DNA from: Alphaproteobacteria bacterium
GTDB lineage: Bacteria > Pseudomonadota > Alphaproteobacteria > UBA828
Assembly: GCA_963667785.2 (NCBI GenBank)
Contig: CAXXMU010000006.1
Location: 544,001-608,000 of the forward strand
Reading direction: 5' to 3'
DNA: 64,000 nt
The stretch's first letter is position 1. Every line of letters begins with the position of its first letter. The notes under the pieces are model-generated. The model was not told the DNA's origin. It did not search any database and saw nothing but the letters and a program-made list of their open reading frames with translations. This document shows, in pieces, positions 1-4,724 of this stretch. Made by a program: the position numbers and the translations under genes.

Positions 1-900
1 GACGCCGAGCACCGGCGCCTTGGCGATGCTCTTCACGTCCTTGACCCAGGGCTTCTGGTGGTTGGCCTTGTAGAAGCGCGACGGGCCCGCGTCCTCGCCC
101 CACTCGGCGATGTCGCCGATGTTCACGTCCCAGAGGTCGACCAGTCCCTCGCTGGTGGCGAGCTCGACGAACTTGAGCCCGTCTTCGCCGACCTCGACGC
201 CGTCGGCACCGTAGAGCGTGTCGATGGCGAAGCGCGTCGCGATCGCGCAATTGTCGCCCACCGCCTGCTTCACCGCGGCGAGCGATTCCAGCCAGAAACG
301 CGCCCGGTTCTCGAAGCTGCCGCCGTAGCCGTCGGTGCGCTTGTTGTAGAACTTCGAGAGAAACTGGAGGGGCAGATAGCTGTGCGCGCCATAGACGTAG
401 ACGATGTCGAAGCCCGCCTGCTCGGCGCGGACCGCGGCATCGACGTACATCTGGATCAGGTCCCTGATGTCGTCCTCGTCGGCCTCGCGCGGGTAGGTCC
501 GCGATTCGAACTCGGATGCGATCTGGCTCGGGCCGCGCGGCACGGCGCGGCTCTCCATGCACGGCGCATGGGCGCCGCCGTACCACATCTCGATCCCGGC
601 GAGCGAGCCGTGCCGGTGGATCTCGTCGCACATGTGGCCGAGATTGATGACGTCGCCCTCGTCCCAGATGCGGGCCGAGACCCGGTGCACGTCGTCCGAT
701 TCGGGATGGATGGAGGTGTACTCGGTGCAGATGCCGCCCCATCCGCCCTCGGCCTTCATGCCGCGGAACGCAGCCTGGGCGCCCGGCTTCTCGGAGCCCG
801 CGCCGTTGCAGTGGGGGACCTGATAGAAGCGGTTCTTCATGGTCTTCGGGCCGATCTGGATCGGCTCGAACAGGCAGTCATACTTCGGATCACGCGCCAT
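1..900 (-). CDS. tmd: Trimethylamine dehydrogenase (TMADH/DMADH family), 5' part; runs off the window
   Basis: Absent from the ORF track; manual translation from ATG 900 gives [31 protein letters not shown]...[14 protein letters not shown]...[14 protein letters not shown], closely matching TMADH including the FMN-linking Cys30, Tyr169/His172 and Trp264. RBS GAGGGGG upstream. Confidence 0.93.
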
Positions 901-1082
901 CTGGCTTCCCCCTCGCGTTCGTCTCGCCGCCGCTCCCCGTGTCGGCCCGCCACCGTTCGCCGGCCGGCAGGAAGCGGCACATGGCCCATTAGTCCATGCC
1001 AACTGCGGCGCAGAATAGCATAGCGAATACGGAGCCGGTAGGCGCTCGACTGCCGCTTACGAAACCAATGCAACAAACATTT

Positions 1083-1166
1083 GATTGGTAGAACCAAATA
1101 CTTGCTTTCCGATTGGTCCAACCAACTATTCGCGCTTCGATTGGTCCAACCAACTATTCAATTTCA
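1083..1166. promoter_or_regulatory. Three GntR/FadR-type operators TTGGT-N3-ACCAA in a 28-bp tandem array
   Basis: TTGGTagaACCAA at 1085, TTGGTccaACCAA at 1113 and 1141; same form as PdhR/LldR boxes; lies in an AT-rich divergent intergenic region. Confidence 0.75.
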
Positions 1167-1187
1167 TGTATCCATTGTCGGCCAGTC

Positions 1188-1222
1188 TTGACACTGATCA
1201 ATGATCCCGAATACGGTATTCG
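1188..1222 (+). promoter_or_regulatory. Putative sigma70 promoter with an overlapping palindrome
   Basis: TTGACA (1188-1193), 18-bp spacer, TACGGT (1212-1217); the palindrome CGAATAC-G-GTATTCG (1208-1222) covers the -10. Confidence 0.5.
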
Positions 1223-1320
1223 TAGATGATTGCATCCGATGAGTGCAATTCATCGTGCTGCCCGCTGACGGCGCCCGATACGGGGTCCTGCGCAGCCGCA
1301 GCCAACAGGGAGACTCAGTC

Positions 1321-2595: not shown

Positions 2596-2628
2596 CCGCA
2601 GCACCAGCGGCAACGACCGCACCATGAA

Positions 2629-2769
2629 GCGGCGGGTCCGTCGGCAGCACGGACCGCCGCACAGGCGAGCCGGGGCGGTGCAGCCCCGGCTCTTCCGTTG
2701 TAGGCTTCGTTTCCGGACAAGCGGACGCCACGCCCTCCCCGGCTCGCCGCCGGCGTTGCCGGGGAGGCG
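2629..2769 (+). other. Three GC-rich hairpins between the binding-protein and permease genes (possible attenuator or mRNA stabiliser)
   Basis: Inverted repeats at about 2629-2660, 2667-2692 (GAGCCGGGG...CCCCGGCTC) and 2732-2769. Confidence 0.45.
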
Positions 2770-2801
2770 GTATATGCCCGGCACCTGAGCCGCGAGGGAC
2801 C

Positions 2802-3677
2802 GTGGAAACTGTCATTCAGACGCTGGTGAACGCTCTGATGCAGAGCAGCTTCGTCGCGCTGATGGCGGTGGGCCTGGTTCTCATCTTCGGCGTCATGCGG
2901 GTGATCAACTTCGCCCACGGCGAGTTCTACATGGCCGGCGCCTATGTGGTGTTCTGGCTCTACGCGCAGAACGATCTGCCCTTCTTCGCCGCGGTCGTCG
3001 CGGCGGTGATCGTCGTCGGCGTCATCGGCCTGATTCTGGAGCAGATTCTGTTCAAGCCGATGCGGGAAAACCCGCTCGGCGGGCTCATCATGTCCGTGGG
3101 TGTGCTCTTCATCCTCCAGGTGCTCGCCGCCGTCATATTCGGCGTCGGCCTGATGAAGCACATCCCGCCCCTCTATCCGGGAGCGACGCCGGTGTTCGGC
3201 CTGGACGGCGTGGCGGTGCCGTGGCAGCGCCTGGTCGCCTTCGGCATCGCCGTCCTGCTGCTGATCGCGTTCTGGCTCTTCCTCAAGCGCACGCGCCTCG
3301 GCTGGGCGCTCCGCGCCTGCGCGCAGGACCGCGAGGCGGCGGCGCTGCAGGGCATGTCGATCAACAAGCTCGCGCTGCTGGCGATGGGCCTCGGCGCCGG
3401 CATGGCGGGCGCCGCCGGCGCGATCATGGCGCCGCTGGTGCGCGTCTATCCCTACATCGGCGGCCCGGTGATCGTGACGGCCTTCATCGTCATCGTCGTG
3501 GGCGGCATCGGCAGCCTCGAGGGCGCCGTGCTGGCCGCGGTGCTCTACACCTTCTTCCACACCTTCATCGCCACCTATCTCGACGGCTCCATCGCCAGCA
3601 TCCTCGGCCTCCTGATGATGCTGCTGGTGCTGATCGTGCGGCCCGCCGGCCTCCTGGGCAAAGGCGAGAAGGTCTAG
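2802..3677 (+). CDS. livH: Branched-chain amino acid-type ABC permease (LivH-like)
   Basis: GLVLIFGVMRVINFAHGEFYM and GGIGSLEGAV motifs; hydrophobic. Confidence 0.9.
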   Translation: METVIQTLVNALMQSSFVALMAVGLVLIFGVMRVINFAHGEFYMAGAYVVFWLYAQNDLPFFAAVVAAVIVVGVIGLILEQILFKPMRENPLGGLIMSVGVLFILQVLAAVIFGVGLMKHIPPLYPGATPVFGLDGVAVPWQRLVAFGIAVLLLIAFWLFLKRTRLGWALRACAQDREAAALQGMSINKLALLAMGLGAGMAGAAGAIMAPLVRVYPYIGGPVIVTAFIVIVVGGIGSLEGAVLAAVLYTFFHTFIATYLDGSIASILGLLMMLLVLIVRPAGLLGKGEKV

Positions 3678-3680
3678 CCG

Positions 3681-4724
3681 ATGATCGGGTCCACCCGGTT
3701 CTGGGCGACCGGCAGCGGCCTCGTGGCGCTGCTGGCCCTCTTCTGCGCGCTGCCCTTCCTGGTCGCGATCTACCGCATCGACATCCTCATCTTCCTGCTC
3801 ATCAACGTGATCCTGGCGATGAGCTACCGCTTCCTCACGCTCGCGGGAGAGTTCTCGCTCGGCCACGTGGTGATGATGGGGGTGGGCGCCTACGGCAGCG
3901 CGCTCGCCACCAAGGAGGCGGGGCTCTCGGTCTGGCTCGCGGCGCCGCTCGCCGCCGCCTTCACGGGCCTGCTGGCCTTCATTCTCGCCTTCCCGCTCTT
4001 CCGCATGAAGGGCTTCTACTTCCTGATCGGCTCCTTCGCCGCGGGCGAAGCGATCCGCCTCACCTGGAACCGCTTTCGCGACCCCTTCGGCGGGCCCGGC
4101 GGCATCGTGTTCATTCCCTCGCCGGAGATTCCTCTTCCCGCCCTCGGCCTGTTCGACGTCGCGGCGGACCCGCGCGCGTACTACTTCCTGTGCCTCGCGC
4201 TGGTGGTCATCACGATCTTCATCTTCTACCGGCTGGAGCACTCGCGCTTCGGGCTCACGCTGCACGCGATCCACTGGAAGGACGTGCTGGCGGAATCGGT
4301 CGGCGTGCACATCTGGTGGTACAAGACCTTCGCCCTGGTCGTGGCGTCCGCCTTCGCCGGGCTCGCCGGCGCCCTGCTCGGCCACTATCTCGGCACCGTC
4401 AACCCGGTCCAGTTCAACCTGCACATCATGCTCTTCGTGCTGGTGTGGGTGATCGTCGGCGGCACGCGGACCATCGCCGGCCCCATCGTGGGCGTCATCG
4501 TGTTGACGGTCGTCGACCAGGGGCTGCGCGGCCTCGACGAATGGCGGCCGCTCTTCTACGGCGCCATCCTGATCCTCACCGTGATGTTCCTGCCGGACGG
4601 GCTGGAGAGCCTGCCGCGGCGGGCACGCGACTGGTGGGAGGCGATCCGCGACCGGCGCAAGCCGCCGGTCAGCGACGACGAGGGACCACCGGAGTCAGAT
4701 AGACCGCCGCCTCGAGACGCCTGA
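3681..4724 (+). CDS. livM: Branched-chain amino acid-type ABC permease (LivM-like)
   Basis: GEFSLGH, RMKGFYF and VIVGG..TIAGP motifs. Confidence 0.9.
   Translation: MIGSTRFWATGSGLVALLALFCALPFLVAIYRIDILIFLLINVILAMSYRFLTLAGEFSLGHVVMMGVGAYGSALATKEAGLSVWLAAPLAAAFTGLLAFILAFPLFRMKGFYFLIGSFAAGEAIRLTWNRFRDPFGGPGGIVFIPSPEIPLPALGLFDVAADPRAYYFLCLALVVITIFIFYRLEHSRFGLTLHAIHWKDVLAESVGVHIWWYKTFALVVASAFAGLAGALLGHYLGTVNPVQFNLHIMLFVLVWVIVGGTRTIAGPIVGVIVLTVVDQGLRGLDEWRPLFYGAILILTVMFLPDGLESLPRRARDWWEAIRDRRKPPVSDDEGPPESDRPPPRDA

Follow-up and report, generated by a model that had tools for sequence, protein, structure and literature searches.

Introduction

Trimethylamine (TMA) is a climate-relevant nitrogen compound of the sea and the gut precursor of trimethylamine N-oxide (TMAO), and its uptake by bacteria is poorly known. 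One report names MttP, a putative and unvalidated archaeal TMA permease, and TmaT, a Na+/TMA symporter of the BCCT family, as the only proteins that had, up to November 2024, been implicated in the transport of TMA by microbes (PMC11708041). Here, we describe a transporter locus at the beginning of a stretch of 64,000 nucleotides of alphaproteobacterial DNA (the window; contig CAXXMU010000006.1, here C6, positions 544001-608000 of genome G000), in which the gene of a trimethylamine dehydrogenase (TMADH) is divergently paired with the genes of an ATP-binding cassette (ABC) importer of the HAAT type. We judge it rather likely that this locus is one half of a TMA utilisation module and that the family of its binding protein provides the ABC-type entry step for TMA. 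The transporter would then probably be the first ABC-type TMA importer.

Several described systems resemble parts of this locus. In TmoXWV, the TMAO-specific importer of marine Alphaproteobacteria, the binding protein TmoX is of the ProX/OpuAC type and its partners are of the ProW/ProV type. TmoXWV resembles the system proposed here in being an ABC importer that takes up a methylated amine by means of a binding protein, and it is found in tmm/tdm clusters (PMC5520151 and PMC13390433). The ABC family is another one, for the window encodes a Peripla_BP_6 binding protein and two BPD_transp_2 permeases, to be combined with LivG/LivF-type ATPases, and the proposed ligand is TMA and not TMAO. TmaT and MttP have the proposed substrate in common with the new system; they are, however, secondary carriers without a binding protein, while the present transporter is predicted to be ATP-driven and binding-protein-dependent, a design usually associated with high affinity. 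The UrtABCDE and LivJ/K-HMGF systems (HAAT, TC 3.A.1.4) have the same component families and operon logic, but the window's transporter misses all of their curated cut-offs and its gene context is different. We know of no conserved TPR-like gene, such as the one found here, that belongs to UrtABCDE or LivJ/K-HMGF. The TMADH of Methylophilus methylotrophus W3A1 (PDB 1djn and 2tmd; complex with electron-transferring flavoprotein (ETF), 1o94) is matched over its full length, with active-site residues and cluster cysteines in common, and dedicated ETF genes are present in this genome as in that system. Unlike its counterpart in strain W3A1, the window's gene has a GcvT-like gene behind it and an ABC importer as its neighbour, and the ETF beta subunit of the genome is fused to an FeS/CCG protein (1056 aa).

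Relatives of the binding protein have been seen before beside tmm. One was called an 'uncharacterized HAAT family' binding protein in 2015 (PMC4744692), and an article of June 2026 on TMA regulation places tmoR beside tmm in 12 of 13 strains, usually with an intervening 'gene of unknown function', and regards tmoXWV as the cluster's sole transporter (PMC13390433). Kivenson et al. 2021 discuss another transporter, of the Ehu/LAO type, that adjoins mttB (PMC8318568). The literature searched, which covers few subscription journals, contained no function assignment for the binding-protein family.

The dehydrogenase and the transporter genes

The source genome comprises 4.09 Mb in 14 contigs, with an estimated completeness of 98.11% and contamination of 6.6%. 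Since the G+C content of the first 10 kb of the window is 0.59-0.76, many of its long open reading frames (ORFs) are spurious, and reading frames were picked by third-position G+C together with family matches. The initial annotation had reported a TMADH-like gene missed by the ORF track, a control region of 420 bp shared with a Tat-exported LivJ-like binding protein, and two permeases, and had described the binding protein as acidic and aromatic-rich. All of these elements were recovered at the places given, the control region having a length of 417 bp, and the description of the binding protein agrees with its composition (pI 4.24, 59 D+E versus 23 K+R, 12.1% W+Y+F).

The 5' part of the TMADH gene (301 codons) occupies 1-903 on the minus strand, with an ATG start at 903-901 (MARDPKYD...); the remainder lies beyond the first position of the window. 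In full, the gene spans C6:542705-544903 on that strand and encodes 732 aa. The part within the window already matches PDB 1djn at 485.6 bits (E 5.9e-145) and Pfam Oxidored_FMN at 263.4 bits, and the full-length protein matches 1djn at 969.5 bits (E 9.5e-291), residues 3-723 aligning to 1-719. The runners-up among solved structures are histamine dehydrogenases, with at most 559 bits. Residue positions, which were counted from the alignments, place Cys30 in VPHCNGAG opposite the VPHCIGAG of 1djn, at the attachment site of 6-S-cysteinyl-FMN. Also conserved are Y60, W264 and W355 of the aromatic substrate bowl, together with S74 and W105, which are substituted in dimethylamine dehydrogenase; the triad Y169, H172 and D267; and the four 4Fe-4S cysteines C345, C348, C351 and C364, within a protein that retains the three-domain length. 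The complete set of residues is found in none of five further paralogues in the genome (42-63% identity). The NCBIfam models searched include none for TMADH, and all matches to the window's protein stay under their cut-offs. Judged by its sequence, the dehydrogenase is a genuine TMADH (EC 1.5.8.2).

Situated 36 bp 3' of the TMADH gene and on the same strand, outside the window, is a gene for a GcvT-like aminomethyltransferase of 365 aa (C6:541571-542668; GCV_T 227.2 bits). Its product scores 240.4 bits against the C-terminal half of TMAO demethylase and 244.6 bits against GcvT, for which the cut-off is 300. The genome at large contains at least six members of the TMADH/histamine-dehydrogenase family, 42-100% identical to the window's enzyme and four of them on contig C6, as well as homologues of Tdm (57%, C2:498542-500833) and GmaS (62%); no Tmm was found with a Roseovarius query. 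The organism seems to be specialised in amine oxidation.

On the plus strand, the binding-protein gene (1321-2595, 424 aa; Peripla_BP_6, 155.2 bits) is followed by permease 1, which is LivH/UrtB-like (2802-3677, 291 aa; BPD_transp_2, 135 bits), and permease 2, which is LivM/UrtC-like (3681-4724, 347 aa; BPD_transp_2, 138.3 bits), all three clearing the Pfam cut-offs. All three reading frames are intact and share 88-93% identity with their counterparts in the related locus L010. No ATPase genes were found 3' of the permeases at the locus, either among ORFs or by Pfam. Export of the binding protein by the Tat pathway is predicted from its N-terminus, MGKKGLTRRQF, in which the twin-arginine motif TRRQF precedes an Ala-rich stretch and R8, R9 and F11 are conserved at 90% or more across 64 aligned family members. 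The presumed mature protein (388 aa) contains 13 W, 14 Y and 20 F. Among the residues that do not vary across the family, W55, W66, W169, Y242, Y270, F289, W336, W370/W371, D268 and D291-D294 are candidates for an aromatic cage with an acidic residue.

By component families the transporter is of the HAAT type (TC 3.A.1.4), and profile scores put it in no curated subfamily. The LivJ-type NCBIfam model PRK15404 gives the binding protein 24.5 bits against a cut-off of 477, covering residues 57-157 of a 450-aa ORF, which by this family test would place it outside the branched-chain amino-acid binders, and among the curated models UrtA did not match it at all. Permease 1 reaches 190.4 bits with UrtB (cut-off 250.3) and 111.2 with LivH (cut-off 379), permease 2 reaches 134.7 with LivM (cut-off 366), and UrtC is matched at 87.6 bits (cut-off 296.2). 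Searched by itself, the binding protein has a LivJ/LivK-type protein as its best solved relative (39.5 bits), while a family profile of 64 sequences (the window's protein, 60 of the 120 listed homologues and three paralogues) matches UrtA structures at 46-52 bits, the top one being a urea-binding UrtA; no solved structure of a close relative was present among those searched. The LivJ residues that contact the alpha-carboxylate and alpha-amino group of the ligand, S79, T102, Y202 and E226, are aligned with G, L, A and T of the window's protein, an observation given no weight as the 39.5-bit alignment is too weak for it. Among 8000 candidates examined, 1803 proteins are homologous to the binding protein at E≤0.001, the best 120 being 61-96% identical, so that the family is both large and closely conserved. 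In the databases its members go by the name 'branched-chain amino acid transport system substrate-binding protein' or by generic ones.

Gene neighbourhoods of the binding-protein family

The neighbourhoods compared are those of the best 80 (loci L010-L089, 60-88% identity) of at least 525 relatives among 552 matched stretches. Their ORFs were called and clustered and the cluster representatives named by Pfam; counts were then redone by tblastn with fixed thresholds, because ORF calling is error-prone at such G+C content. The recurrent ORF clusters were LivG/LivF-type ATPases (65/80 loci), an unnamed protein of about 234 aa (51/80), an FMO-like monooxygenase (34/80), a GntR/FCD regulator (33/80), a DUF1989+GCV_T protein, stand-alone GcvT-like genes included (32/80), an ammonium transporter (8/80) and TMADH (7/80). 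Homologues of permease 1 and permease 2 were detected by blastp among the called ORFs of 62 and 76 loci, respectively, ATPases by tblastn in 67, and two family binding-protein matches occurred in 26.

By tblastn, Tmm was found in 35/80 loci (at least 40% identity and 50% coverage), TMADH in 7/80 (45% and 50%), MttB in 4/80 (35% and 30%) and Tdm in 24/80 (35% and 50%). An enzyme consuming TMA, that is Tmm, TMADH or MttB, lies within 10 kb of the binding-protein gene in 46 of the 80 loci, or in 53 when Tdm is counted as well. The assignments are exemplified by Roseovarius sp. 217 (L046), whose FMO clears the NCBIfam equivalog cut-off for Tmm (835.7 against 675) and whose DUF1989 protein clears that for TMAO demethylase (1218.5 against 1100). 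This linkage extends over Alphaproteobacteria and over metagenome-assembled genomes (MAGs) labelled Gammaproteobacteria and Desulfobacterota.

The enzymes differ in their distance to the nearest family binding-protein gene. Tmm is within 600 bp in 31 of 35 cases, mostly divergent (median gap 218 bp), MttB in 3 of 4 (375.5 bp) and TMADH in 3 of 7 (1897 bp), while Tdm is never that close (0 of 24; median about 3.6 kb). As nearly all Tmm genes but no Tdm gene fall within 600 bp, the immediate partner of the binding protein is a TMA-taking enzyme, and since TMA is the substrate common to Tmm, MttB and TMADH, it is favoured over TMAO as the ligand.

The MttB loci come from four MAGs labelled Desulfobacterales, Thermodesulfobacteriota, Desulfobacteraceae and Desulfohalobiaceae, and encode a binding protein 63-65% identical to the window's, along with permeases and ATPases. 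The adjoining MTTB-family genes are split into two ORFs. A RACo-type activase and B12-binding corrinoid proteins are encoded beside them, and two of the loci also have MtmB. An in-frame TAG codon read as pyrrolysine is a signature of genuine methylamine methyltransferases. In L016, from the MAG labelled Desulfobacterales, MttB (4258-5790, minus strand) becomes continuous when its single in-frame TAG, at residue 341, is read in this manner, and MtmB (7958-9343, plus strand) has one in-frame TAG at residue 203, which fits the use of pyrrolysine; L019 and L021 have the same two-ORF split of MttB.

A second kind of transporter was encountered in L015, where a ProU/Cho-type ABC system (5303-9528, minus strand) is positioned directly upstream of the HAAT system. 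Its parts are a 674-aa protein in which two permeases are fused (ChoW, 436.9 bits), an ATPase of the ProV type and a protein of 344 aa that matches no family, and it may be a TmoXWV-like importer of TMAO. The ORF cluster of the fused permease recurs in 6/80 loci.

A module probably divided between two contigs

The best matches in the genome to the ATPases of the family are two pairs, one at C2:440668-442140 and one within C6:780248-788207. The LivG-like member of the C2 pair has a BCA_ABC_TP_C tail. Behind the pair, in the same orientation, come a gene for an FeS/CCG-ETF-beta fusion of 1056 aa (C2:437473-440643) and then the gene for ETF-alpha (C2:436511-437473), which is 61% identical to the gene in that position of L032. 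No homologue of a HAAT permease or binding protein is present within 25 kb on either side of the C2 pair. The identity of these ATPases to those of the family loci is 60-67%, a range shared with the binding protein and the permeases.

The genes that are apart in this genome are together in relatives. L053 and L060 each combine the binding protein with a pair of permeases, a pair of ATPases, the 234-aa protein, TMADH and the ETF fusion. In genome G103, LivG and LivF are followed on the opposite strand by permease 2, permease 1 and the binding protein, and these by divergent genes for TMADH, the ETF fusion and a GcvT-like protein (76%, 62% and 65% identical, respectively); G017 and G028 show similar arrangements. 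Because the parts are joined in these relatives and the C2 pair is otherwise an orphan, we infer that a rearrangement has split one module into two halves, the window's locus and the C2 operon, which presumes that C2 and C6 derive from one organism. The notion of a degenerate transporter devoid of ATPases was dropped once the orphan pair on C2 had been found.

The fusion itself joins ETF-beta to a heterodisulfide-reductase-like FeS/CCG region of about 800 aa (within L091, G000:C2:436511-442140), and the same fusion follows TMADH in L032, L035, L053, L060, G103, G017 and G028. It may link TMADH directly to the quinone pool.

The second ATPase pair belongs to a complete paralogous system outside the window (L090, G000:C6:780248-793981). 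There, genes for LivG, LivF and a TPR protein converge on those for permease 2, permease 1, a binding protein with 53% identity to the window's and a TMADH paralogue (63%) in which A60 and L74 replace Y60 and S74. The genes next to these encode a SnoaL-like protein, a PhyH-dioxygenase, two glutamine-synthetase-like proteins and an aldehyde dehydrogenase. L090 may be an uptake and catabolism module for another alkylamine.

Co-occurrence and phylogeny

The phyletic distribution was determined in 401 genomes sampled evenly from the class, the source genome included. The binding protein was found at E≤1e-60 in 20 genomes and Tmm at E≤1e-80 in 16; the identities of TMADH matches were bimodal (62-100%, or 47% and less), and 7 genomes had one at 62% or more. 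The genome sets with Tmm and with TMADH are disjoint, so that 23 genomes have either enzyme. These include 12 of the 20 genomes with the binding protein and 11 of the 381 others (Fisher p = 4.5e-12, uncorrected for kinship), a p value that overstates the association because related genomes are not independent. In 10 of the 12 genomes the binding-protein and enzyme genes are no more than 11 kb apart.

A FastTree phylogeny of 108 family sequences, 106 from the 80 loci and two from the source genome, has a main clade of 72 rows in which Tmm-, TMADH- and MttB-linked members are intermixed. A paralogue clade of 25 rows, 46-54% identical to the window's protein, comprises the additional binding proteins that Roseobacter-type loci encode between tmm and a GntR gene. 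The window's protein itself is in a clade of five rows with L010, L011, L012 and L013 (support 99), a sister lineage and not a branch inside the Tmm-linked clade, and TMADH adjoins the binding protein in four of the five, L013 being the exception. All residue changes between the window clade and the main clade are conservative (G54A, H152L, A181V, A331S, A333M, E334D, M335L and L355M). The order Tmm, binding protein, GntR regulator recurs in the surveyed loci and in genome G344, and judged from this gene order the gene between tmm and tmoR is most likely a member of the paralogue clade. The G344 example (L097, G344:C24:196001-215000) is an orphan paralogous binding protein, 49% identical, located between the GntR gene and tmm.

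Proposed pathway and alternative readings

Taken as a whole, the module could work as follows. The Tat-exported binding protein would capture TMA in the periplasm, where at physiological pH it would mostly be the trimethylammonium cation, and pass it to the heterodimeric HAAT-type permease, transport being powered by the LivG/LivF-type pair encoded at C2:440668-442140. In the cytoplasm, TMADH would convert TMA to dimethylamine (DMA) and formaldehyde, with electrons going to the C2-encoded ETF, and the GcvT-like protein would probably trap the formaldehyde as methylene-tetrahydrofolate. Across the family, one entry step would serve three unrelated routes, those of Tmm, TMADH and pyrrolysine-containing MttB. 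Gene context, and nothing else, leads us to favour TMA over DMA, monomethylamine (MMA) and TMAO.

The initial annotation had proposed a new methylated-amine uptake system, with a binding protein that may bind TMA, DMA or a related amine through cation-pi contacts, and had named the neighbourhoods of homologues beforehand as a check on it. The check was positive, with linkage to TMA-consuming enzymes in 46 of 80 neighbourhoods, and the proposal draws further support from the co-occurrence (12/20 against 11/381 genomes) and from the failure of the LivJ-type model. The word 'new' holds in that no function was assigned to the family in the literature searched, but not in the sense that the family had escaped notice, the relative adjacent to tmm being mentioned already in PMC4744692 and PMC13390433.

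Extended to the whole family, the proposal becomes somewhat less secure, and we lean towards it by a small measure. The family would then be the first ABC-type high-affinity uptake system for TMA, made up of a HAAT transporter with a conserved TPR-like protein as its accessory and, in many Roseobacters, with a pair of binding proteins for the one translocator, and would act as the common entry for Tmm in marine aerobes, for TMADH in sponge-associated and other Alphaproteobacteria and for pyrrolysine MttB in sulfate-reducer-like anaerobes, which would also explain the function of the gene adjacent to tmm. If this is true, the binding-protein gene could serve as a marker for TMA uptake in metagenomes and metatranscriptomes, an unassigned gene of the well-studied tmm clusters would acquire a function, HAAT binding proteins would have a new class of ligand, and the protein would offer a scaffold for a TMA biosensor.

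Several observations weigh against this interpretation. Neither Tmm, TMADH, MttB nor Tdm was found in 27 of the 80 loci, of which 15 are on contigs shorter than 17 kb and 12 have full flanks. With the queries used, 8 of the 20 binding-protein genomes have neither Tmm nor a close TMADH; conversely, the binding protein is absent from 9 of the 16 Tmm genomes and from 2 of the 7 TMADH genomes (G300, and G081, where the contig is partial). Genome G048, of the same family as the source genome, has an 89% identical TMADH orthologue without a family binding protein adjoining it. The five-row clade of the window branches outside both the main and the paralogue clades, in a tree whose root, a single 35% paralogue, is weak, and the transfer of function to the window's protein would therefore depend on about 63% identity and on its own gene context. 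The C2 ATPases are assigned by way of relatives, in a genome with the contamination estimated above. Finally, DMA, MMA or TMAO may be additional or alternative ligands, given MtmB in two of the four MttB loci and Tdm nearby.

It is this last point that yields the strongest alternative, a methylated-amine importer whose main ligand is TMAO, DMA, MMA or a broad range of methylamines, which we hold to be unlikely but deserving of attention. It would accommodate the occurrence of Tdm within 10 kb in 24/80 loci, the company of MtmB (monomethylamine methyltransferase) and MttB in two of the four anaerobe loci, and a genome in which Tdm (57%, C2:498542-500833) is present and Tmm was not found with the query used; the two paralogous binding proteins per translocator of many Roseobacter loci (two matches in 26/80) also suggest several ligands. 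However, Tdm is never the immediate neighbour (0/24 within 600 bp, against 31/35 for Tmm), TMAO would be useless to the loci in which TMADH or MttB is the sole amine enzyme, and TMAO already has an importer of its own in TmoXWV, which belongs to another family (PMC5520151). The presence of a ProU/Cho-type system beside the HAAT system in L015 is in keeping with a division of labour between the two.

Import of a TMA precursor or of a small nitrogen compound, be it choline, glycine betaine, carnitine, urea or a short amide, with only an indirect link to TMA, appears improbable to us. A Rieske oxygenase distantly similar to GbcA (135.2 bits, cut-off 670) is encoded 3 kb upstream, the best solved relative by profile is the urea-binding UrtA (52 bits), and permease 1 has its top score with UrtB (190.4). 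Yet a homologue of the Rieske protein was found in only one of the 80 loci (L082, 33% identity) and in none of L010-L012, for which reason it was discarded as a part of the module; every Urt equivalog cut-off is missed, and the recurrent neighbour clusters include no enzyme that forms TMA from quaternary amines.

We give still less credence to the view that the binding protein is mainly a periplasmic sensor or buffer and not a part of a transporter. It is suggested by genome G344, where the paralogue, flanked by tmm and the GntR gene, has neither permease nor ATPase genes for company in 19 kb; the arrangement matches the tmm-unknown gene-tmoR order described for Ruegeria pomeroyi and others (PMC13390433). 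But this lone arrangement belongs to the paralogue clade, whereas two intact permease genes directly follow the window's gene, as homologues do in 62/80 and 76/80 loci, and ATPases are encoded in 67/80. Least credible of all is an ordinary importer of branched-chain or other amino acids that is beside TMADH by chance, or a decaying system, as the database names of homologues and the lack of ATPase genes at the locus might suggest, for the LivJ-type score is 24.5 bits against 477, the link to TMA enzymes recurs in Alphaproteobacteria and in MAGs labelled Gammaproteobacteria and Desulfobacterota, the transporter genes are all undamaged and share 88-93% identity with their L010 counterparts, and a matching orphan ATPase pair exists in the genome.

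The control region and the TPR-like gene

The TMADH and binding-protein genes are separated by the divergent control region (904-1320), which has blocks conserved with L010 and L011. It contains an array (1085-1153) of three palindromes TTGGT-N3-ACCAA that start at 1085, 1113 and 1141, with a spacing of 28 bp. These three exact matches compare with 0.01 expected per window; three were reached in none of 100 shuffles, and they are the only exact copies in the 4.09-Mb genome. Palindromes are in place in L010 (three) and L011 (two); L050 and L073 have one each, elsewhere, and the other loci compared have none. Because L010 and L011 alone keep the array among these loci, the palindrome appears specific to the close relatives of the window, and its proposal as an operator common to other loci of the family was dropped on that ground.

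The half-site pattern resembles operators of the GntR/FadR type. From their sequence and arrangement, the three palindromes are probable operator sites and would probably govern both divergent transcription units. No regulator gene adjoins the control region, and the genome's best GntR/FCD match, encoded on contig C1, has 38% identity. No sigma-70-like promoter was recognised in the control region, and no Rfam family reached its threshold there. A promoter and terminator scan of 850-5700 gave two promoters against 0.6 expected and two terminators against 1.8, none of them in the control region, and no claim is based on these sites. A match to a snoRNA model inside permease 1, in an Rfam scan of 1-7000, was dismissed at 17.6 bits against 45.

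Convergent with permease 2 and overlapping its end is a TPR-like gene (4669-5409, minus strand, 246 aa). Its product is 72% identical to ORFs in the equivalent place of L010 and L011 and has 50 blastp matches among the ORFs of the 80 loci, its ORF cluster being present in 51. It reached the threshold of no Pfam or NCBIfam family (TPR_12, 21.8 bits against 30.1), and its paralogue in the second locus, L090, scores 55.8 bits with TPR_12. As the gene co-occurs with the transporter whichever enzyme adjoins, its product looks like an accessory of the transporter.

RNA libraries, habitat and other genes of the window

Contigs from four metatranscriptomic libraries, each of a different study, lie with 90-99% likeness on the genes for TMADH, the binding protein and the permeases, and one contig of 1378 letters spans 1290-2581. 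This is weak support, as presence in an RNA library is no proof of transcription. Cover is little or absent in the bins of 936-1309 and absent in 5050-5600, from which nothing was concluded. The DNA of the window is matched best by two runs of one study that are labelled sponge metagenome, with 0.71 and 0.65 of the sampled words compared with 0.34 or less for the others. This hints at a sponge-associated habitat, and the top-matching runs may be the source sample.

After the locus come genes for an ArsP-type permease (5510-6952, plus strand), a membrane LytTR protein (6986-7804, minus strand) and a carotenoid-oxygenase-like protein of the RPE65 family (8392-9909, plus strand), for none of which a link to the transporter locus was seen. 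By eye, a long minus-strand ORF at 10341-12593 has an acyl-CoA-dehydrogenase-like stretch, and another ORF on that strand (11552-12409) has the look of a P-loop GTPase of the UreG/HypB type. Further along the window, a homologue of ammonium transporters is encoded at 49263-50609 on the minus strand (C6:593263-594609), 45% identical to the Amt near the binding protein of L079.

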